Assembly (NCBI GenBank): GCA_947630055.1
Contig: CANRGA010000003.1
Span: 1,050-65,049 of the forward strand
DNA: 64,000 nt
DNA from: an uncultured Bacilli bacterium
GTDB taxonomy: Bacteria > Bacillota_I > Bacilli_A > RF39 > UBA660
Reading direction: 5' to 3'
Shown here piece by piece: positions 10,786 to 19,452 of the stretch. The stretch's first letter is position 1, and each line of letters begins with the position of its first letter. A program made the position numbers and the translations under genes. A model generated the notes under the pieces. It searched no databases. It was not told the origin of the DNA and saw only the letters and a program-made list of their open reading frames with translations.

Positions 10786-11133
10786 ATGTATATAAAGGCC
10801 TTTATATTTGCCGGAATTGTTTGTCTAATTTGCCAAGTAGTACTTGATAATACTAAACTTACTCCAGGACATATTACTAGTAGTGTTACAGTAATTGGAG
10901 CATTATTATCTTTTTTAGGAATATACGATAAGATAATTGCTTGGGCTGGAGCCGGAGCAACAGTTTTAATTGCCAATTTTGGTCATATGCTTTATTCAGC
11001 CGGTTTAGCGGGATATGAAGAAGCCGGAGTCCTTGGCCTTTTTTCTCAACTATTATGTTCTTCAGGTATAGCTATTGTCAGTGTAGTAGTTTTTTCCTTT
11101 ATCTTTACGCTTATATTTAAAGCAAAAGATTAA
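10786..11133 (+). CDS. spoVAE: Stage V sporulation protein AE (AEB)
   Basis: 115-aa polytopic membrane protein following spoVAD. A terminator hairpin gaagcaatga...tcattgcttc plus T-run follows. Confidence 0.8.
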   Translation: MYIKAFIFAGIVCLICQVVLDNTKLTPGHITSSVTVIGALLSFLGIYDKIIAWAGAGATVLIANFGHMLYSAGLAGYEEAGVLGLFSQLLCSSGIAIVSVVVFSFIFTLIFKAKD

Positions 11134-11238
11134 ATGAGAAGCAATGATTTAATCAAAAATTCATTGCTTCTTTTTTTATGCAAAAATGCCATGTACACAC
11201 ATAAGACAGGAAGTAAGCGTAAAACTTTAGCACATGCG

Positions 11239-11268
11239 TTGACTCATTTTAAATTGCTAATATATAAT
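11239..11268 (+). promoter_or_regulatory. Putative sigma-A-type promoter of the DGR target operon
   Basis: TTGACT (11239-11244), 18-nt spacer, TATAAT (11263-11268). Confidence 0.5.
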
Positions 11269-11306
11269 TAATTTGTATGATAGAAAAGGAATAGTTGATG
11301 TGAAAA

Positions 11307-11798
11307 ATGAATAAAATAATGGAAAAAATAAAAAGCTTAGATAAGAAAGAAGTCATAGCTATAATTGGTATTTTGTTAATAATGATGGCGCTATTTATGC
11401 TTCCTCGGTTTATTTTAGGCAAAGATAATACTTTACCAGAAGTTAAGTTAAGAGAACTGCGTAATAATGGAATGTTTGCGTTAATGATACCTGATGATAA
11501 TCATGAAGGACAATATAAAGAATATACTGGAAACGATTTATTTCCTAAAGGTTATTTACTAAATATTGATAAAAGTTATTGTTTAGATAATGCAGGACAG
11601 GAGGTAAAAGGCGTATTAAGTAGAGTAAAAGGTAGTAACAGTGTTACATTAAAAAGTAATCAAACAGTCTATTGTACATTGTACTTTGAACATTCAGCAG
11701 CAGTTGTATTAATTTATAATAATACAATAAAACAAAAAACAGGTTGTACAAATGTCCAATGTGCTTTAGATGAATTATACACAGTAAGTTATTATTAG
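11307..11798 (+). CDS. TM-anchored small surface protein, stand-alone copy of the N-terminal module of the 36185/48384 paralogs
   Basis: N-terminal TM. LPEVKLRELRNN...TVYCTLYFE aligns with LPEVKLKEIVNKNK...TVYCTVYFD of the paralogs. The C-terminus has TNVQCALDELY, like the target protein N-terminus. Confidence 0.7.
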   Translation: MNKIMEKIKSLDKKEVIAIIGILLIMMALFMLPRFILGKDNTLPEVKLRELRNNGMFALMIPDDNHEGQYKEYTGNDLFPKGYLLNIDKSYCLDNAGQEVKGVLSRVKGSNSVTLKSNQTVYCTLYFEHSAAVVLIYNNTIKQKTGCTNVQCALDELYTVSYY

Positions 11799-11813
11799 AA
11801 AGAGGTATAGATA

Positions 11814-13274
11814 ATGAAGAAAGTAATAAAAAATAATTATAAATTAATAATAGGTATAATCATAGGACTTGTAATATCAGTAAGTGGTGTATATGCTGCT
11901 ACTGCAATAATTCAAAGTAAAGAAGTTAACTATGATAATTCATCAAGTCATGGTTCATATACTAATGTTCAAGATTCAATAGATGAACTATACGAAAGAA
12001 GTGGCTTGACAAAATCAAAATGGGTAGATTCAACATTAAATGGTAATGATCCAGTATTAGGAGAAGGAATGATACCAGTCACTATAGATGGTAATGGTAA
12101 AGTTTACTATGCTAGTGAATATACAGAATGGTATAACTATAGTGAAAAGAGATGGGCTAATGCAGTTATATTGACAAGTTCAGCTAGTAAATATTCTGCT
12201 GGTCAAGAAATACCAGATAAAGATATTAAAGGATACTTTGTATGGATACCAAGATATAGTTATAAAATTTGGAATGATGGTAACTATACTAAAACAATGA
12301 CTTTAACAGATTTAAAGAATACAAAAGAAACAGCTACGGATGAAGGAGCATTATGGAAAATAACTGGAAATAATACTAGAATAATAGATATTAAATTTGT
12401 TGGAAAAGATACAACTGATACTGGTGATAGTGTAGGACAATATTTAACTCATCCAGCATTTAAACTAGGAAGTAAAGTATTAACTGGTATATGGGTAGGA
12501 AAATTTGAAACTGGTGGATCTAGTACAGATACAATGGTGGTAAAGCCTGGTGTTGTATCATGGAGAAATAAAACGGTAAAAGAATTTTTTGATGCTGGCA
12601 AAAGTTTTGCTCAAAAACTAGATAGCCATATGATGAAAAATACAGAATGGGGAGCTGCTGCATACTTATCTCATTCACAATATGGTATAGGAAATGAAGT
12701 AAATATCAATAATGCAAGTGATTATTATACAGGTTATAGTGCAGCTCCTGGAACTAATCAAAGTACAATACCAGCAGAATCAGCAGCACATACTGAGGGA
12801 ACAAAAACTCAACCATGGAATACTCCAGTTGGATATCTTGCAAGTACAACCGGAAATATAAGTGGTATCTATGATATGTCAGGCGGTGCTTGGGAATATA
12901 TGGCAGCATGTGTAGAAGGTAAGCCTGGTTCTAGTGGCTTTGAAGAAGGTGCATTATCTACTGAAATGACTAGTGGATATATTGATAAATATCCATCAGA
13001 TAGTGGAATAACAACATATAATAAAAGAATCTTAGGCGATGCCACGGGAGAGATGGGTCCTTTCTATAGTTATTTTGAAGGAAATGGAACATCTTATAAT
13101 CATTCTAGTTGGTATGGCGACTACGCTTATTTCGTTGGGTCGGCGTGGCCTTGGTTCAGTCGTGGTGGCGGTTTCAGCGACGGCGTTATCGCTGGTCAGT
13201 TCTACTTCAATAGGTACACTGGTGAGGCCGTTGGCGGCTATGGTTTCCGGGTTGTTCTTGCTCCAACCAAATAA
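11814..13274 (+). CDS. DGR target (variable) protein: signal-anchored, FGE-sulfatase/C-type-lectin-like C-terminal domain carrying the VR
   Basis: Motifs THPAF..GIWVGKFE, NISGIYDMSGGAWEY (GxYDMSGNxWEW-type) and a terminal ...GFRVVL. The last ~150 nt are repeated four times downstream with adenine-centred differences. Confidence 0.9.
   Translation: MKKVIKNNYKLIIGIIIGLVISVSGVYAATAIIQSKEVNYDNSSSHGSYTNVQDSIDELYERSGLTKSKWVDSTLNGNDPVLGEGMIPVTIDGNGKVYYASEYTEWYNYSEKRWANAVILTSSASKYSAGQEIPDKDIKGYFVWIPRYSYKIWNDGNYTKTMTLTDLKNTKETATDEGALWKITGNNTRIIDIKFVGKDTTDTGDSVGQYLTHPAFKLGSKVLTGIWVGKFETGGSSTDTMVVKPGVVSWRNKTVKEFFDAGKSFAQKLDSHMMKNTEWGAAAYLSHSQYGIGNEVNINNASDYYTGYSAAPGTNQSTIPAESAAHTEGTKTQPWNTPVGYLASTTGNISGIYDMSGGAWEYMAACVEGKPGSSGFEEGALSTEMTSGYIDKYPSDSGITTYNKRILGDATGEMGPFYSYFEGNGTSYNHSSWYGDYAYFVGSAWPWFSRGGGFSDGVIAGQFYFNRYTGEAVGGYGFRVVLAPTK
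13113..13261 (+). repeat. DGR variable repeat (VR), 149 nt
   Basis: Ungapped alignment to the four downstream 149-nt copies. It is strongly GC-rich and A-poor relative to the rest of the gene. AAY codons of the copies appear here as TAC/TAT/AGT/GGT/GTT. Confidence 0.9.
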
Positions 13275-13320
13275 TTTGTGAACGAAGTGAGCAAATTATT
13301 AACTTTGTTGCTTTTAAATA

Positions 13321-13358
13321 GTCACCCCGCTCTTCTTTTTAAGCGGGGTGACTAATTT
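13321..13358 (+). terminator. GC-rich hairpin/terminator after the target gene (possibly also a DGR target-recognition hairpin)
   Basis: gtcaccccgc (13321-13330) pairs with gcggggtgac (13343-13352), with a 12-nt loop followed by a T-rich run. Confidence 0.7.
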
Positions 13359-13368
13359 TTGTTTATAG

Positions 13369-13827
13369 TTGATAAAAAATTTAATATAACATAAAATGAT
13401 ATTGTAGGTCATAGGTTGTAAAAATTTGCTTTTTTACTTTTTAATTGCTTGATTTATGGCGACAACGCTAATTTCGTTGAGGCGGCATGGCCTTGGTTCA
13501 ATCGTGGTAGCAATTGGAACAATGGCGTACTTGCAGGTCAGTTCAACTTCAATAGGAACACTGGTGAGGCCAATGGCGGCAATGGTTTCCGGGTTGTTCT
13601 TGCAGACTAAAATATAAAAGTTTATTTAAACTTCATCATAATATTATTAATTATAAAGATATTATATCGAAATTAATGTGTTTAAGGACATTATTATGAT
13701 GCTTAATTTAGAAATTTATGACCTTTCTATTTTTAAAATAGGAAAATATTTAACAAAGTATTGTGGTTAGTAGTAAAATGACGAAAATCATAATATGATA
13801 GTAGTGCTAAAAATGGCACTACTTTTA
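13369..13827 (+). ncRNA. DGR template-repeat RNA cassette 1 (TR1 = 13455-13603)
   Basis: Promoter TTGATA 13369-13374, 17-nt spacer, TAAAAT 13392-13397. TR is rich in AAY codons (aac/aat at the positions where the VR varies). 3' flank has a stem 13634-13643/13692-13701. Leader 13406-13417 pairs with 13713-13724. Terminator stem 13800-13807/13816-13823 plus T-run. Confidence 0.7.
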
Positions 13828-13830
13828 TTA

Positions 13831-14296
13831 TTGATAAAAATTTTAATATAACATAAAATATTATTATAGGTCATAGGTTGTAAAAATTCTCTTTTTTTAC
13901 TTTTTAATAACTTGACTTATGGCGACATCGCTAATTTCGTTGAGTCAACGAATCCTTGGTTCAATCGTGGTAGCAATTGGAACGACGGCGTGCTTGCAGG
14001 TCAGTTCAACTTCAATAGGAACACTGGTGCGGCCAATGGCAACAATGGTTTCCGGGTTGTTCTTGCTAGACTAAATTATAAAAGTTTATAAAACTTCATC
14101 ATAATATTATTAATTATAAAAGATATTTTTATCGAAGTTAATGTGTTTACGGACATTATTATGATGCTTAATTTAGAAATTTATGACCTTTCTATTTTTA
14201 AAATAGGAGAAAAATTTAACAAAGTATTATGGTTAGTAGTAAAATGGCGAAAGTCATAATATGACAAGTAGTGCTTAAACAGCACTGCTTTTTTTG
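13831..14296 (+). ncRNA. DGR template-repeat RNA cassette 2 (TR2 = 13918-14066)
   Basis: Promoter TTGATA 13831-13836, 17-nt spacer, TAAAAT 13854-13859. Same leader (aggtcata 13868-13875) and 3' partner (tatgacct 14182-14189). Terminator stem 14267-14275/14281-14289 plus T6. Confidence 0.7.
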
Positions 14297-14388
14297 TGCG
14301 GAAAAATTTTTGAATAGTTTGGCAATTTGGTAGAATTTATGATAAATCAAAAATTGAAAATTTAATAATAGGTTGATATTTATTATAG

Positions 14389-14849
14389 TTGATAAAACTT
14401 TTAATTTAAAATAAAATAATATTGTAGGTCATAGGTTGTAAAAATTTGCTTTTTTGACTTTTTAATAACTTGACTTATGGCGACAACGCTAATTTCGTTG
14501 ACTCAACGAACCCTTGGTTCAATCGTGGTGGCAATTGGAACGACGGCGTACTTGCAGGCCAGTTCTACTTCAATAGGAACACTGGTGAGGCCAATGTCAA
14601 CAGAGGTTTCCGGGTTGTTCTTGCAGACTAAATTATAAAAGTTTATTAAAACTTCGTCATAATATTATTAATAATAAAGATATTTTTTATCGAAATTAAT
14701 TTGTCTACGGACCTTATTATGATGTTTAATTTAGAAATTTATGACCTTTCTATTTTAATAGGAGAAAAATTTAACAAAGTATTATGGTTAGTAGTAAAAT
14801 GGCGAAAGTCATAATATGACAAGTGGTGCTTAAATGGCACTGCTTTTTA
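14389..14849 (+). ncRNA. DGR template-repeat RNA cassette 3 (TR3 = 14476-14624)
   Basis: Promoter TTGATA 14389-14394, 17-nt spacer, TAAAAT 14412-14417. Leader aggtcata 14426-14433 and partner tatgacct 14740-14747. Terminator 14822-14829/14837-14844 plus T-run. Confidence 0.7.
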
Positions 14850-14852
14850 TTG

Positions 14853-15315
14853 TTGAATTAATTTTTAATATAACATAAAATGATAATGTAGGTCATAGGT
14901 TGTAAAAATTCTCTTTTTTAACTTTTTAATAACTTAACTTATGGCGACAACGCTAATTTCGTTGAGTCGGCGTGGCCTTGGTTCAATCGTGGTGGCGGTT
15001 TCAGCGACGGCGTTATCGCTGGTCAGTTCTACTTCAATAGGAATGCTGGTGAGGCCAATGGCAATCGTGGTTTCCGGGTTGTTCTTGCTAGACTAAATTA
15101 TAAAAGTTTATTAAAGCTTCGTCATAATATTATTAATAAAAAAAAGATATTATATCGAAATTAATTTGTTTACGGACATTATTGTGATGCTTAATTTAGA
15201 AATTTATGACCTTTCTATTTTAAAATAGGAGAAAAATTTAACAAAGTATTATGGTTAGTAGTAAAATGACGAAAATCATAATATGACAAGTAGTGCTTAA
15301 ATAGCACTGCTTTTA
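14853..15315 (+). ncRNA. DGR template-repeat RNA cassette 4 (TR4 = 14940-15088)
   Basis: Promoter TTGAAT 14853-14858, 17-nt spacer, TAAAAT 14876-14881. Leader aggtcata 14890-14897 and partner tatgacct 15205-15212. Terminator 15289-15297/15303-15311 plus T-run. The central part of TR4 is identical to the current VR. Confidence 0.7.
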
Positions 15316-15350
15316 AATTTTATAAAAATGTCAAAAATTGTCAAAAATGC

Positions 15351-15380
15351 TTGTCAATATTTTTGGTTGCTTGATATAAT
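15351..15380 (+). promoter_or_regulatory. Putative promoter of the MSL-avd-RT operon
   Basis: TTGTCA (15351-15356), 18-nt spacer, TATAAT (15375-15380). Confidence 0.45.
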
Positions 15381-15432
15381 TGAATTGTCTAGAGGGTAGA
15401 GGTTGTATGTTCTTATTTCTGGAGGTATACAC

Positions 15433-15825
15433 ATGAGTAAGATATATAACGAATATTTAAGATTAAAAGCAAAAGATCCTAATAAATTGTATTTATTTAA
15501 GTCGGGTAAATTTTATATATTTGTTGGTGATGATGTTGATACTATAAATAATTATGTTGTTTTAAAGAGAACAAATTTTTCTAATGAATCTCAAAAATGT
15601 GGTTTTCCAGAAAGCGTTTTAGATGATTATTTAAGAGTGTTTAAAAATCATCATTTAGATATTGAAGTAATAACAGAAATAATACCTATTAATGATGATG
15701 ATAGTAAATTAGAAAAGATTACTAATTATTTAAAAAGAATTAAAATTGATAAGATTACGCCTTTAGAGGCTTTTAAACATTTAGTAAGAATAAAGGAAAT
15801 AGTAGATGATGAAGAAAGGAGTTGA
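15433..15825 (+). CDS. MutS-domain-I-like small protein (DGR accessory, MSL-type)
   Basis: ATG 15433 follows ggagg (15421-15425). NEYLRLKAKDPNKLYLFKSGKFYIFVGDDV...CGFPESVLDDYLRVF aligns with MutS N-terminal [30 protein letters not shown]...AGIPYHAVENYLAKL. Confidence 0.7.
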   Translation: MSKIYNEYLRLKAKDPNKLYLFKSGKFYIFVGDDVDTINNYVVLKRTNFSNESQKCGFPESVLDDYLRVFKNHHLDIEVITEIIPINDDDSKLEKITNYLKRIKIDKITPLEAFKHLVRIKEIVDDEERS

Positions 15826-16168
15826 AGATGTCAAAATATATCGTAATTATTTTGACTTTATTTGTTATATAGAAATGATTACGGAAAAATTTCCTAAATA
15901 TACTAAATTTGGTTTTGTTAATATTATTAAGAAAACTTTATATAAAGGAATGGAAGATATATTATATGCTTATAAGTCATTTGAAAAGAGTGATAAGCTT
16001 TCCTATTTAAATGATTTAGATGTTACTTTAAAAATGTTAAAGTTATATGCAAGAGTATCTTATAAGAAAAAATATATTAATGTTAAAAATTATGAGGCAT
16101 GGAGTAGAAAAATAAATAGTGTTTGTACTTCTTTAGGAGCTTGGATTAATGTATGCCTAAAACGATAA
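15806..16168 (+). CDS. avd: Avd-like accessory variability determinant (four-helix-bundle protein)
   Basis: About 120 aa, helical, with a pattern like four-helix-bundle/23S-IVS proteins. Lies immediately upstream of and overlapping the RT, as in canonical DGRs. Confidence 0.75.
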   Translation: MMKKGVEDVKIYRNYFDFICYIEMITEKFPKYTKFGFVNIIKKTLYKGMEDILYAYKSFEKSDKLSYLNDLDVTLKMLKLYARVSYKKKYINVKNYEAWSRKINSVCTSLGAWINVCLKR

Positions 16169-17190
16169 AAAATAGTTTTGATGAAAAATTAACTTTTCAA
16201 AAGTTAATAGAAGCTCATCAAAGAGCTTCAATAGGAAAGCAAAATAAAAAAGAAGTTATTTTATTTGGAGTTGATTTAGAAACTAATATTATTAGAATTC
16301 TCAATGAAATTCAAAGAGGTATATATCGATTTGGAGAATATCGGGAATTTGTTGTTTATGAACCTAAAGAAAGAATAATTAAATCACTACCATATCGTGA
16401 TCGGGTAGTACATCAATGGTATGTAGAAGAATTTATTAAACCTTATTTTTGTAAACGATTTATAAGTGATACATATGCTTGTCTAGATGATAAAGGAACT
16501 CATAAAGCAGTTTTTAATACGCAAAAGAAAATGCGCTATATGAAAAGAAAATACGGCCATTATTATGTTTTAAAGTGTGATATTAAAAAATATTTTTATA
16601 GTATTGATAAGAAAATACTAATGGATATTTTAAGTAAAAGAATGAAAGATAAAAAATTAATAGAGTTTACAAGAACTATTTTAGATGATGGACAAGAAAA
16701 GGGTATTCCAATTGGTAATTTTACTAGTCAATATTTTGCTAATATTTATTTAAATGAATTAGATCATTATGTAAAAGAACAATTACAAATTAAATGTTAT
16801 ATTAGATATATGGATGATTTTATATTTATGTTACCTACAAAAGAAGAAGCTAAAAAAGTTCAAGCAGAAATAACTAGTTTTTTAGCTGATCATTTAAATT
16901 TAACTTTGAATACTAAAAGTAGATATTTTTCTCATAAATTTGGAATAGATTTTTGTGGCTTTCGAATTTATGAAACACATATATTACTTCGTAAAAGGTT
17001 TAAAAGAAAATTAAATAAAAGTATTAAATTGTGGCATATGTTAAAAAAGAAAAATAGATTTTATGATAAGAAGTTTTTATTAAGTTTAAACTCTTATCGT
17101 GGTCACGCTATTCATTGTAATTCTTATCATTTTATGCAAAAAGTAGATGAGAAAATAAAAGATTTATATCCAACAGAAAATAATAAATAA
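16153..17190 (+). CDS. DGR-type reverse transcriptase
   Basis: RT motifs: YRDRVVHQ, KCDIKKYFYSID, PIGNFTSQYFANIYL (the DGR-diagnostic [ILV]GxxxSQ), and YMDDF catalytic box. Confidence 0.92.
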   Translation: MPKTIKNSFDEKLTFQKLIEAHQRASIGKQNKKEVILFGVDLETNIIRILNEIQRGIYRFGEYREFVVYEPKERIIKSLPYRDRVVHQWYVEEFIKPYFCKRFISDTYACLDDKGTHKAVFNTQKKMRYMKRKYGHYYVLKCDIKKYFYSIDKKILMDILSKRMKDKKLIEFTRTILDDGQEKGIPIGNFTSQYFANIYLNELDHYVKEQLQIKCYIRYMDDFIFMLPTKEEAKKVQAEITSFLADHLNLTLNTKSRYFSHKFGIDFCGFRIYETHILLRKRFKRKLNKSIKLWHMLKKKNRFYDKKFLLSLNSYRGHAIHCNSYHFMQKVDEKIKDLYPTENNK

Positions 17191-17210
17191 TGTAAAAAAG
17201 TGTTAAAAAT

Positions 17211-17236
17211 TCTCTAAAAAATAGAGATTTTTTTAA
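17211..17236 (+). terminator. Putative terminator after the RT gene
   Basis: tctcta (17211-17216) pairs with tagaga (17222-17227), followed by a T7 run. Confidence 0.5.
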
Positions 17237-17315
17237 TTTTTAAAGAAATTTTTTCTGAAAAAAAAGGAAATAGAAGGAAAAAAACTAATAATATAAGTGA
17301 AGGGAGGAAAAAACG

Positions 17316-18062
17316 TTGGTACCTATTTTAAAAATTGATCGTAATTTTAAAGCGGTAGTAGCAGATCCGAATGATACTAAATTACTAGAATGTATTTTAA
17401 CAGATATTTTAGATGAAGAAGTACATATAGTAAAATTTATTTCTAATGAATTAAAAATAACAGATTTAATAGTTGAAACAAATAATGGAGAATGTCTACT
17501 TATTGAATTAAATAGTAATTATGATAATTCATTAAAATTAAGAAATTTATCATATTTTACTTCATATTATTCGCAAATAGTTGTAATAAATTTAAATTAT
17601 GGTATGAGTGAAAAAGAACCATTTAAAGAAATATATTATTTAAGAGGAAATATAACAGGAAGAATATATACGGATACTTTTAAAATAATCGATGTAAATC
17701 TTGATAAGTATAAAGAGAAATGGTACGATAAATGTATAGAAGGCGACAAAAAACATATATATCTAGTAATGTTAAATGCTAATTCAAAAGAAATAAAAAA
17801 ATTAAGTAAAAGAGATAAAATAATAAGGGAGTATGAGAAAAAGATGTTAACTTTAACAAAAGAAGGTGTAGTAATAAATCATTTGACACCAAAAGAGGAA
17901 GAAGAAAAATTAATGCGTTCAAGAATACATATGGCAGAAATAGAAGGAATTAATAAAGTTGCAATTAATCTTTTAAAAACAAATATGTCTATAGAATATA
18001 TTGAAAAAGTAACGGGACTTACGAAAAGAGAAATTAAAATATTAAAGGAAAAAATAAAATAA
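17316..18062 (+). CDS. Rpn/YhgA-like PD-(D/E)XK recombination-promoting nuclease/putative transposase
   Basis: TTG start after gggagg. N-terminal pattern ...FKAVVADPNDTKLLECILTDIL...DLIVETNNGECLLIELN... and a C-terminal HTH-like tail (SIEYIEKVTGLTKREIKIL) typical of the family. Confidence 0.6.
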   Translation: MVPILKIDRNFKAVVADPNDTKLLECILTDILDEEVHIVKFISNELKITDLIVETNNGECLLIELNSNYDNSLKLRNLSYFTSYYSQIVVINLNYGMSEKEPFKEIYYLRGNITGRIYTDTFKIIDVNLDKYKEKWYDKCIEGDKKHIYLVMLNANSKEIKKLSKRDKIIREYEKKMLTLTKEGVVINHLTPKEEEEKLMRSRIHMAEIEGINKVAINLLKTNMSIEYIEKVTGLTKREIKILKEKIK

Positions 18063-18120
18063 TTGATAATTAAATAGGCAAGAAAGATAAATTTGTAATA
18101 TAATTTAAGTAGGTGATTTT

Positions 18121-19452
18121 ATGTTAGAAAACAAAAAAATATTAATATTAGGATTAGCTAGAAGTGGTTATCATGTAGCTAGGTTATTAACTGCTAATAA
18201 TAATAGCAATGAAATAATTGTTACAGATAAAAATTTACCAGCTTTTAGTATATTAGATGAATTAAAAGAATTAGGAATTAAATTTGTTCAAAGTGATACA
18301 GCTGAAGAATTATTAGATGATACTTTTGATGTAATGATTAAAAATCCTGGAATTGAACCAACTCATCCTTGTGTAGTAAAAGCCACTAAATTAAATATTT
18401 CTATTGTTAATGAAATGGAGGTAGCTTATCATTATTTACCCAAAGATGTTAAAATTATTGGGATAACTGGTTCTAATGGTAAAACAACTACTACAACAAT
18501 GATATATGACTTAATGAAATTACATCATTTACCAGTAATACTTGGAGGTAATATTGGTTATCCTTTATCTGAAATAGTACCAATGGTAAGAGAAGGTGAT
18601 ATTTTAGTTTTAGAAATATCCGATCATCAATTATATAATTTAAAAGATTTTAAAACTGATATAAGTGTTCTTACTAATTTATGTCCAACTCATCTAGATT
18701 TTCATGGTAATTATGAAAATTATTTAAATATAAAGAAAAAAATATTTAATCACCATACTAATAATGATATAGCTATTATTAATAACCAAAATGAAGATAG
18801 TTTAAAAATAACTAAAGATATTCCATCACAAAAAATATATTTTAATAATGAAGAAAATTATTATAATGATGAAGGTATATATATAGATAAAGAATTAATA
18901 ATAAATTTAACTGATATTAAAATTAAAGGAACTCATAATTATGAAAATATTTTAGCCTCACTTTTAGTATTAAAAGAATTTGGTTTTGATAAAAAAATAA
19001 TTAAAGATTACTTAAATTCTTTTAATGGCGTAGAACATCGTTTAGAAGTTGTCGATAGTAACTCTGATGTTAAATTTTATAATGATTCAAAAGCTACTAA
19101 TCCAACTTCAACTTTGATTGCTTTAAAAACAATGCAAATGCCAACGCACTTAATTTTAGGTGGTAAAGAGCGAAGTCAAGACTTTAATGAATTAAATGAT
19201 AATATTAAAATAGTAAAAAAAATATATGCTATTGGCGAAGTAACAGATAGAGTATATGATTATGCAATGAGTTTAAATATACCATGTGTAAAGTGTTATA
19301 CTTTAGATAGAGCTATGTTAGAAATTAAAAATAATGTTCAAAATAGCGAAATAGTCTTATTATCACCAGCAAGTGCATCATGGGATCAATATGACAAATT
19401 TGAAACAAGGGGCGAAGAATTTAAAAAATTAGTTGAAAAATATTTCAATTAA
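18121..19452 (+). CDS. murD: UDP-N-acetylmuramoylalanine--D-glutamate ligase
   Basis: GLARSG Rossmann start, GITGSNGKTTT P-loop, Mur ligase C-terminal motifs (NDSKATN). Confidence 0.9.
   Translation: MLENKKILILGLARSGYHVARLLTANNNSNEIIVTDKNLPAFSILDELKELGIKFVQSDTAEELLDDTFDVMIKNPGIEPTHPCVVKATKLNISIVNEMEVAYHYLPKDVKIIGITGSNGKTTTTTMIYDLMKLHHLPVILGGNIGYPLSEIVPMVREGDILVLEISDHQLYNLKDFKTDISVLTNLCPTHLDFHGNYENYLNIKKKIFNHHTNNDIAIINNQNEDSLKITKDIPSQKIYFNNEENYYNDEGIYIDKELIINLTDIKIKGTHNYENILASLLVLKEFGFDKKIIKDYLNSFNGVEHRLEVVDSNSDVKFYNDSKATNPTSTLIALKTMQMPTHLILGGKERSQDFNELNDNIKIVKKIYAIGEVTDRVYDYAMSLNIPCVKCYTLDRAMLEIKNNVQNSEIVLLSPASASWDQYDKFETRGEEFKKLVEKYFN

Follow-up and report, generated by a model that had tools for sequence, protein, structure and literature searches.

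A DGR with four tandem, diverged template modules beside a single VR

Introduction

The DGR paradigm is built on one invariant template (TR), from which only the adenine-encoded positions are randomized. Since this single template does not vary, the scaffold of the target and its set of variable residues are fixed. In the Bordetella phage BPP-1, the DGR elements are arranged in the order mtd VR–avd–TR–brt. The 3′ boundary of cDNA integration in this system is fixed within the GC-rich IMH element, and 5′ integration, for which template switching has been proposed, is homology-dependent and sometimes cryptic (PMC3240598). The BPP-1 system has also been reconstituted in E. coli (PMC12875486). MSL is a known DGR accessory gene and, in the accessible text of Wu et al. 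2018, belongs to Architecture D (PMC5758913). Loci with additional TRs have also been surveyed, such as that of Stenotrophomonas sp. SKA14, in which two TRs accompany six VRs (PMC6642488).

Here, we describe a DGR with four tandem, diverged template modules, where the typical count is one, in a 64,000-nucleotide stretch of DNA from an uncultured Bacilli bacterium (the whole stretch analyzed, denoted as the window). Approximately 28 related loci each possess one VR and one TR, and a single TR is the norm of the clade. No description of one VR served by tandem or multiple TRs was found in the searchable literature, and text searches of the accessible portions of the Wu 2018 and Roux 2021 surveys and of a Bacteroides preprint retrieved no TR arrays. 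A sequence-only reading of this DNA had called the architecture unusual or undescribed, an assessment that holds as far as it can be checked: the relatives carry single TRs, and the surveys tie extra TRs to their own VRs.

Results

DGR-clade reverse transcriptases (RTs) are distinguished by an [I/V/L]GxxxSQ motif and YxDD. The 345 aa RT encoded at 16153..17190 (this and all features below lie on the + strand) matches Pfam RVT_1 (E=3.8e-16) and contains IGNFTSQ and YMDD in its translation, which places it in the DGR clade; 3,619 homologs were found at E<=1e-20. Upstream of the RT, overlapping ORFs encode the pair of accessory proteins of an MSL-type DGR. The MSL gene (15433..15825, 130 aa) encodes MutS domain I only (Pfam MutS_I, E=1.7e-8), and the avd gene (15806..16168, 120 aa) matches Pfam bAvd (E=1.9e-16). 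A promoter scan detected a promoter-like site (TTGTCA, 18 nt, TG-TATAAT) at 15351-15380, before MSL.

The target gene (ORF at 11814..13274) encodes a 486 aa protein that has a membrane anchor or signal at its N-terminus; its C-terminal FGE-sulfatase/C-type-lectin-like domain (Pfam FGE-sulfatase, E=2.1e-6) ends in the VR, and these features suggest a lectin-type surface protein. Repeat alignment assigns the VR to the final 50 codons (13113-13262), and no second VR-like copy occurs in the 64-kb window. According to the Pfam match and an ORF scan, the VR lies within a protein-coding target and the TRs are non-coding. TR and VR share an invariant 20-nt 3′ end, GGTTTCCGGGTTGTTCTTGC, and their identity stops right after GTTCTTGC(T). 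No partially mismatched IMH/IMH* pair of the BPP-1 kind is visible at the VR/TR ends. Alongside the shared 3′ end, a strong hairpin is located approximately 58 nt beyond the VR. This 12-bp GC-rich hairpin with its T-run (13321..13354), which has similar counterparts 3′ of the VR in relatives, is by its sequence the predicted terminator of the target gene, and it may possibly serve as a target-recognition hairpin in homing. An exact look-up of the target protein returned no record, whereas a cluster-level look-up did match. Querying with the last 137 residues of the target for further VR alleles yielded only homologs of at most 65% identity and no same-species fragments, and a JGI metagenome scan with the 20-mer GGTTTCCGGGTTGTTCTTGC gave seven unrelated matches and no same-species locus.

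The non-coding cassette array occupies positions 13360-15320, between the VR-bearing target gene and the MSL–avd–RT operon, and contains no ORF of at least 60 aa on either strand. The approximately 150-nt repeat is present in five ungapped copies, one VR and four TRs, and the cassettes were delimited by repeat alignment together with promoter and hairpin scans. Each comprises a promoter-like site, a 57-nt leader, a 150-nt TR, a structured RNA of approximately 220 nt, and a terminator-like hairpin, so that every part named in the sequence-only reading was recovered. Cassette 1 (13360..13830) consists of a promoter-like site (13369-13397), the leader (13398-13454), TR1 (13455-13604), the structured 3′ RNA (13605-13799), and a terminator-like hairpin followed by a T-run (13800-13823). 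Cassette 2 (13822..14297) contains the corresponding promoter-like site at 13831-13859, TR2 at 13918-14067, the 3′ RNA at 14068-14265, and the hairpin at 14266-14290. In cassette 3 (14381..14852), these elements are located at 14389-14417, 14476-14625 (TR3), 14626-14820, and 14821-14845, and in cassette 4 (14842..15320), at 14853-14881, 14940-15089 (TR4), 15090-15287, and 15288-15312, respectively. The distances between successive TR starts are 463, 558, and 464 nt. The greater length of cassette 2 is due to approximately 85 additional nt after its terminator; in the alignment of cassettes, this extra spacer (14298-14380) is confined to the cassette 2/3 junction. The array escaped Tandem Repeats Finder, as its period reaches or exceeds the 500-nt limit of that program and its copies have diverged from one another.

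The alignment of the four TRs contains 33–34 variable columns, in agreement with the roughly 33 differences counted by hand in the sequence-only reading, whose examples of non-adenine differences are likewise correct (codon 21, TGG/TTC; codon 26, CTT/ATC; codons 10–12, GCG-GCA-TGG versus TCA-ACG-AAT). An adenine allele is present in 22 of 33 variable columns (null 0.47, p=0.02). TR4 contains 24 adenines and seven AAY codons, compared with 34–36 adenines and 10–11 AAY codons in the other TRs. The TRs are not more diverged between cassettes than their flanks, as every part is approximately 88% identical.

The promoter-like sites are composed of a −35-like hexamer, TTGATA in three cassettes and TTGAAT in one, followed after exactly 17 nt by TAAAAT, and the 57-nt leader extends from this −10 element to the TR. 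Both the hexamers and the 17-nt spacing are retained in the four cassettes of the window as well as in four of another strain, L082. Ten terminator-like hairpins occur in the region, compared with 1.1 expected from shuffled sequence. These conserved consensus motifs suggest that each cassette is a self-contained transcription unit. Across the single-TR relatives, a conserved sigma-70 promoter is not clearly present; the leader motif GTAGGTYATAGGTTG is conserved there, together with a GGCATTTAT motif upstream.

In 16 relatives with a single TR, the 3′ flank is conserved as a structured RNA with 48 predicted pairs, 27 of which show compensatory changes. The leader segment AGGTCATAG pairs with the flank segment TTATGACCT through nine pairs (99.4% paired), and a C-G to U-A change in this helix is found in four sequences. 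An Rfam scan of positions 11000-19000 at E<=1 gave no match within the cassettes, and the leader/3′-flank RNA is a candidate for a DGR RNA family absent from Rfam. Differences among the four cassettes fall on 4 of 80 conserved 3′-RNA columns versus 32 of 138 columns elsewhere (p=2.9e-4), and the avoidance strengthens to p=4e-6 with eight cassettes. Since the differences spare the conserved columns, all four cassettes are maintained and not decaying. The 3′ RNA is thus, by its pattern of sequence conservation, under purifying selection in all four copies, contrary to the inert, decaying duplicates that the sequence-only reading had named as part of one outcome that would undo its proposal.

Near-clonal contigs from other samples diverge from the window almost solely within the VR. 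L087, L103, and L104 differ from the window at 8, 6, and 1 positions, respectively, all inside the VR, and L089 differs at 29 VR positions and only two others in 7.3 kb. L081, from the same sample as L089, carries an array that is 100% identical to that of the window over 1,906 nt. The VR is therefore hypervariable in natural populations, while TR and flanks are constant. The set comprises only six VR alleles, including two partial ones, all from low-coverage (2–5x) metagenome assemblies; assemblies from short reads break at VRs and TRs. The ENA source samples are ERZ27249118, ERZ27249236, ERZ27249337, ERZ27249603, ERZ27249329, and ERZ27249158, the last of which contains the strain with the L088 allele. 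Differences between VR and TR fall almost only on TR adenines, and alleles from genomes that are otherwise nearly identical carry the markers of three templates (TR1, TR2, and TR4). Within the window VR, the 3′ part bears TR1 markers and the 5′ part TR4 markers; TR1 markers also occur in the L103 VR and TR4 markers in the 5′ parts of the L087 and L104 VRs, and TR2 is the source of the L089 VR. Compared with TR4 alone, the window VR shows nine mismatches at adenines and five at non-adenines; compared with a mosaic of TR4 (1–78) and TR1 (79–149), it shows ten and none, respectively (P=3.8e-8 for all mismatches falling on A by chance). At the five non-adenine mismatches to TR4, the VR bases are those of TR1, and the chance that five random non-adenine errors on TR4 would all be TR1-compatible is approximately 2e-5. 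Mutation of TR4 after copying was considered for these five mismatches and rejected; the TR4 bases are common to three other strains (L090b, L091b, and b4), and the mismatches are therefore not recent TR4 mutations.

The L089 VR differs from TR2 at 18 adenines and one non-adenine, compared with 6–19 non-adenine mismatches to the remaining TRs. The partial L103 VR differs from TR1 at five adenines and no other position, compared with four to five non-adenine mismatches to the other TRs, and the partial L104 VR differs from TR4 at five adenines only. In the VRs of the window and L087, the TR4-derived 5′ part is identical, and the differences lie at adenine positions of the TR1-derived 3′ part, a pattern that fits repeated 3′-anchored events. 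The L087 VR requires one non-adenine change or a three-segment history. None of the six alleles is assignable to TR3. The L088 VR has at least 11 non-adenine mismatches to any known cassette or mosaic, so that a further, unseen template or a different process is required. Assigning VR haplotypes by their non-adenine positions, a check suggested in the sequence-only reading, thus identifies TR1, TR2, TR4, or TR4/TR1 mosaics, with mismatches falling almost only on template adenines, L088 apart. Positions 27, 28, 36, 62, 63, 69, 75, 76, 78, 105, 113, 122, and 126 serve to assign a VR to its template. This result supports the multi-template DGR proposed there: at least three cassettes have rewritten one VR, often as mosaics.

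The cassette junctions are reproduced exactly by independent assemblies from at least five samples; the L087 contig spans VR–TR1–TR2, and L090 and L114 have identical TR3 and TR4. Between strains, the cassettes are mosaics of each other, with most variant alleles borrowed from other cassettes, which indicates DNA-level exchange within the array. Among the novel cassette changes between strains, 8 of 17 are A-to-N; in cassette b2, all four are A-to-N, and two equal the VR's own alleles. TR-like arrays also occur in other MSL/Avd/RT DGRs of gut Bacilli, with two units in L027, eight in L050, and at least ten in L038; in the L050 array, no promoter or terminator is evident for each cassette. Instead of a fixed set of templates, the array might tentatively be viewed as a rewritable, heritable library, in which cassettes are shuffled and occasionally take up A-mutagenized sequence, with either the VR as donor or homing into a TR as the route, although we regard this as unlikely on balance. 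Borrowed alleles, A-to-N changes, adenine-rich TR–TR columns, and the arrays of L050 and L038 are hints of such a library. If it exists, successful binding-site variants would be archived as templates and recombined with fresh adenine mutagenesis.

Discussion

The locus is probably an MSL-type DGR in which the single template has been replaced by four complete, diverged tandem modules, all serving one VR. We propose that every module yields its own RNA of approximately 420 nt, transcribed from its promoter-like site, in which the TR is bracketed by the leader/3′-flank helix and followed by the conserved structured domain. This domain may recruit and prime RT–Avd, in a role analogous to that of the spacer RNA in the DGR of Bordetella phage. 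Adenine-mutagenized cDNA of any one module would then replace VR sequence, an RT-mediated transfer from TR to VR that would have the invariant 3′ end GGTTTCCGGGTTGTTCTTGC as its anchor and would resolve upstream at a variable point of homology. Successive events from different modules, each a 3′-anchored partial replacement, would thus produce mosaic VRs. As the modules differ in non-adenine positions and AAY codons, the array would enable the cell to change, on the ligand-binding surface, both the fixed scaffold residues and which positions are randomized; a single TR cannot do so.

A locus with one functional TR, for example TR4 beside the accessory genes, and three inert, decaying duplicates would agree with the single TR usual in related loci and with TR4 being the nearest template for the window, L087, and L104 VRs. 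This possibility is already disfavored and very improbable, since unique non-adenine markers of TR2 (in L089) and TR1 (in L103 and, for the window VR, in its 3′ part) occur in near-clonal genomes, the bases that distinguish TR4 recur in L090b, L091b, and b4, the cassette RNA elements are under purifying selection, and the promoter-like and terminator-like sites are intact in every cassette. Still less probable is an array that arose as an assembly artefact or whose TRs each serve mainly a separate remote VR. Tandem repeats are easily mis-assembled, L083 may be a C2/C4 chimera, and the analysis covers 64 kb of the genome; however, the junctions are exact in independent assemblies, the window contains one VR-like copy, and alleles of this single VR correspond to three of the cassettes.

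The origin of the mosaics admits two further accounts, as they could also result from RT template switching between RNAs or from DNA recombination among cassettes. In a system of silent donors feeding the VR by RecA-type gene conversion, in the style of pilS/pilE and vls, cassette choice would be RT-free, and the RT would mutagenize from one template. The mosaic VRs, the DNA-level exchange evident from inter-strain cassette mosaicism, and the direct repeats adjoining the VR, which invite recombination, would be compatible with it. However, TR1- and TR2-assigned segments differ from those cassettes at adenines only (18 of 19 for TR2), a signature of RT copying that argues against gene conversion, and every cassette contains the conserved leader and 3′ RNA of the relatives' single TR; we consider this account improbable. 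Formation of a mosaic in a single event, by RT switching between co-expressed TR RNAs during cDNA synthesis, deserves more weight but is still rather unlikely. Long identical stretches common to the four RNAs would permit it, and such switching has been proposed for BPP-1 5′ cDNA integration (PMC3240598). In contrast, the window and L087 share the TR4-type 5′ part, including its A substitutions, and differ in the 3′ part, for which successive 3′-anchored events on a common ancestor provide a simpler account.

An array of diverged modules acting on one VR lifts the limit of the single template, in that cassette choice and mosaic formation alter non-adenine positions as well as which codons are randomized, multiplying the accessible sequence space. 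Two strategies formerly seen apart, silent-cassette switching and templated hypermutation, are thereby combined. The locus offers a natural system for the choice of RT–Avd among competing template RNAs, the length of cDNA conversion tracts in vivo, and the evolution of TRs. Several orthogonal TR RNAs per target also represent a design principle relevant to DGR-based directed-evolution tools.

Among the known systems, SKA14-type loci similarly combine one RT with more than one TR, although the extra TRs in the surveyed loci come with corresponding VRs and multiple targets (PMC6642488). In contrast, four diverged TRs here act on a single VR, as complete tandem modules that yield mosaic VRs. MSL-containing DGRs (PMC5758913; Bacteroides Msl, bioRxiv 10.1101/2024.11.15.621889) share the small MutS-domain-I protein, Avd, RT, and FGE/CLec-type target, whereas TR arrays are not described in the accessible parts of those texts. 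Like the present locus, the BPP-1 DGR employs RT and Avd and transfers adenine-specific changes from the TR to the C-terminal VR of a C-type-lectin-fold protein; an invariant GC-rich TR/VR 3′ end, a structured RNA 3′ of the TR, and a hairpin downstream of the VR are also common to both. BPP-1 differs in its single TR between avd and brt, compared with four autonomous-looking modules upstream of MSL–avd–RT, in its 21-bp IMH/IMH* pair, of which no counterpart is recognizable here, and in the distance of the hairpin from the VR (approximately 4 nt versus 58 nt). Neisseria pilS/pilE and Borrelia vls resemble the locus in that an array of diverged, non-expressed copies feeds one expressed locus and generates mosaic alleles. 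Templated mutagenesis plays no part in the recombination of those systems, whose cassettes are not RNA genes. Instead of the faithful donor copying of pilS and vls, the differences between VR alleles and their matching cassettes are adenine-specific here, so that transfer bears the signature of adenine mutagenesis, and each cassette carries the RNA elements of a retroelement.

Anatomy of the template array

The cassette array (13360–15320, forward strand) comprises four tandem non-coding units (C1–C4), with start-to-start distances of 463, 558, and 464 nt. Each unit contains a repeat of about 150 nt (TR1–TR4), a copy of the sequence that also makes up the last 50 codons (13113–13262) of a 486-aa ORF. 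All four share one layout. A promoter-like site (TTGATA or TTGAAT, 17 nt, and TAAAAT) precedes a 57-nt leader and the TR, and behind the TR come a conserved 3' flank of about 220 nt and a 10-bp hairpin with a T-run. The region has ten terminator-like sites, where shuffled sequence would be expected to give 1.1, and the array contains no ORF of 60 aa or more. Every part of the four cassettes described in the sequence-only reading was recovered. Its count of about 33 differences among the TRs and its codon examples were likewise correct, with 33–34 variable columns. The repeat has only one coding copy within the 64-kb window, which therefore holds a single VR. An insert of about 85 extra nt (14298–14380) lies between cassettes 2 and 3; within it is TTTGGCAATTTGG, similar to the GGCATTTAT motif found in single-TR relatives.

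The array is reproduced by independent metagenome assemblies. Locus L081 (sample ERZ27249118) is 100% identical to window 13545–15450, L087 (ERZ27249337) covers the target, VR, TR1, and TR2, and in L090 and L114 both TR3 and TR4 match the window without a difference. The comparison of related strains proposed in the sequence-only reading yielded a different strain, L082 (ERZ27249236), with four full cassettes about 90% identical to those of the window and the tail of a fifth; it likewise has spacers at some cassette junctions. In the MSL-adjacent cassette of L083 (L083:1–300, ERZ27249337), the 3' flank is C2-type over its first ~155 nt and C4-type from there on. This locus is either the product of a C2/C4 unequal crossover that cut the array to two cassettes, in which case copy number varies, or a chimera made in assembly over a ~85-nt identical stretch.

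Neighboring genes and classification

The locus belongs to the MSL-type DGRs ('Architecture D' in Wu et al. 2018, PMC5758913) and shows every testable defining feature of a DGR. No IMH*-type element is evident at the locus. Overlapping ORFs immediately downstream of the array encode a protein consisting of MutS domain I alone (MSL; 15433–15825, forward strand), bAvd, and a reverse transcriptase (RT), in which MSL overlaps avd and avd overlaps RT. The motifs IGNFTSQ and YMDD are read from the RT ORF, whose nearest relatives are 54–73% identical and belong to MAGs of uncultured gut Bacilli, many of rabbit source. All related loci checked, with arrays or not, have MSL, and in the window a strong promoter-like site (15351–15380; extended -10) lies near its gene. 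The locus is flanked by the spoVA operon on one side and murD on the other, in a genome of 26% G+C. The target protein carries a membrane anchor at the N-terminus, and its C-terminus is FGE-sulfatase/C-type-lectin-like. Directly 5' of its gene, a 163-aa ORF (11307–11798) with an N-terminal transmembrane segment and without a Pfam match is kept alongside the target in all same-species contigs, so its product may partner the variable protein. Directly 3' of RT, a PD-(D/E)XK (PDDEXK_2) gene (17316–18062) encodes 248 aa in the window and 201 or 209 aa in other same-species strains.

Template signatures in the VR alleles

Six VR alleles, two of them partial, were found, all from low-coverage assemblies. 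Outside the VR, near-clonal contigs from other samples are essentially the same as the window: L087, L103, and L104 have 8, 6, and 1 VR differences, respectively, and none elsewhere, and L089 has 29 VR differences against 2 elsewhere (in 7.3 kb). Compared with TR4 alone, the window VR has 9 mismatches at template adenines and 5 at non-adenines (sites 105, 106, and 126–128), and all five carry the TR1 bases. When it is treated as a TR4(1–78)/TR1(79–149) mosaic, 10 mismatches remain, every one at a template adenine (P=3.8e-8). Random errors on TR4 would account for five TR1-compatible non-A bases with a chance of about 2e-5. Recent mutation of TR4 itself as the source of its distinguishing bases is ruled out, since the same bases occur in three other strains. 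The L087 VR is also of the TR4/TR1 type (11 A and 1 non-A mismatches); its TR4-type 5' part is identical to that of the window, whereas the TR1-type 3' part differs at adenine positions. The L089 VR corresponds to TR2 with 18 A and 1 non-A mismatches, against 6–19 non-A mismatches to the other TRs. For the L103 VR (59 nt available), the fit is to TR1, with 5 A and no non-A mismatches, against 4–5 non-A to the others; for the L104 VR (81 nt available) it is to TR4, also with 5 A and no non-A mismatches.

Assignment of natural VR haplotypes by their non-A positions, a check put forward in the sequence-only reading, thus identified markers of TR1, TR2, and TR4, so three or more of the four cassettes appear to have templated the single VR. 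The proposed multi-template DGR is borne out to this extent, but no TR3-derived allele occurs among the six. No known cassette or mosaic fits the L088 VR (L088:2163–2312, ERZ27249158): each leaves at least 11 non-A mismatches, among them T-to-C changes at the 3' end, which is otherwise invariant. This implies an unseen template in this strain. The last two cassettes of the same sample (L090) are identical to window TR3 and TR4.

Conservation of the cassettes and flank RNA

Related loci scanned with profiles from cassette parts mostly have one VR, one TR, and one 3' flank. The flank is alignable across 16 single-TR relatives, and its predicted consensus fold contains 48 pairs, 27 with compensatory changes. 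By complementarity, AGGTCATAG of the leader can pair with TTATGACCT of the 3' flank, giving a 9-bp long-range helix around the TR (13421–13429 with 13719–13727, and equivalent positions in cassettes 2–4). This helix is 99.4% paired over 20 sequences, with a compensatory C-G to U-A change in four relatives. The four window cassettes vary at 4 of 80 columns conserved among relatives versus 32 of 138 variable columns (Fisher p=2.9e-4; p=4e-6 with eight cassettes of two strains), which speaks against inert, decaying duplicates, the alternative named beforehand. Promoter hexamers and spacing are retained in all eight cassettes of the two strains. The identity of ~88% between cassettes, alike for leader, TR, and flank, indicates that the duplications are old, yet each module is intact.

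The GGCATTTAT motif, ~20–60 nt upstream of the TR leader, is common to the single-TR loci L001, L005, L009, L012, L015, L016, L018, L022, L026, and L039, in which it precedes the conserved leader (ATAAATGTAGGTYATAGGTTG). In place of GGCATTTAT, the window cassettes have TTTATAGTTGATA, which makes the -35-like hexamer.

Arrays in other loci

Non-coding TR-like arrays occur in three further MSL/Avd/RT loci from gut Bacilli/Tenericutes MAGs: two TRs and a VR in L027 (51–1185), eight units upstream of avd-RT in L050 (633–3465), and at least ten units downstream of RT in L038 (2439–5913), whose contig ends inside the array. The L038 and L050 arrays were examined as DNA without target genes, and L027 with its VR, which has non-A mismatches to both of its own TRs at different places. 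The L050 units have no obvious promoters or terminators of their own. Two non-coding TR-like matches each were seen in L056, L077, and L079 (also L075 and L080); those of L077 score alike and lie 3.8 kb apart, and those of L079 are both on the minus strand, 3' of RT. In related DGRs, the start of a MAG contig often falls within the VR or TR or just ahead of it (L004, L006, L008, L011, L013, L017, L028, L034, L035, L046, and L068), which fits the assembly breaks expected at sites hypervariable at the population level. Therefore, short-read data probably under-report the occurrence and size of arrays.

Proposed mechanism and comparison with known systems

In the Bordetella phage DGR, 3' cDNA integration occurs at a fixed boundary inside a GC-rich element common to TR and VR, and short TR/VR homology suffices for 5' integration, with cryptic internal sites possible (PMC3240598). 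In the mechanism we propose, the cDNA of any module would replace the VR from its invariant 3' end (GGTTTCCGGGTTGTTCTTGC) to a variable crossover, and over a series of events from different modules the signatures of older templates would remain 5'. The window, L087, and L089 alleles are consistent with this pattern. The mosaics could in part reflect switching of the RT between template RNAs, or DNA exchange.

The cassette TRs are themselves mosaics of one another between strains (L082:174–1869 versus window TR1–TR4; L091:11–159). Of 17 novel TR changes between strains, 8 are A-to-N, as are all four in b2, a cassette of another strain, two of which match VR alleles. These comparisons suggest shuffling of the TRs and perhaps, on occasion, their adenine mutagenesis or conversion from the VR. 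In VR-frame translation, the TRs have different fixed residues, such as G-F-S-D-G-V-I in TR4 versus N-W-N-D-G-V-L in TR2 and TR3, and TR4 has 7 AAY codons against 10–11 in the other TRs. Cassette choice therefore changes the scaffold as well as the set of randomised positions.

Surveys mention multi-TR loci with corresponding VRs (PMC6642488), and in a Treponema study 'multiple TRs' refers to a mixture of strains in one person. No array of complete TR modules in tandem that serve one VR and give mosaic products appears in these sources or in the TR-related passages of Wu 2018, Roux 2021, and the Bacteroides preprint, and wider literature searches found no description of one. Within the literature covered, the judgment that the architecture is unusual or undescribed thus stands, with related loci being mostly single-TR. 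The DGR and its MSL type are known; what is new relative to these sources is the convergence of tandem complete TR modules on one VR, by which the locus works like a cross between a silent-cassette system and a DGR.
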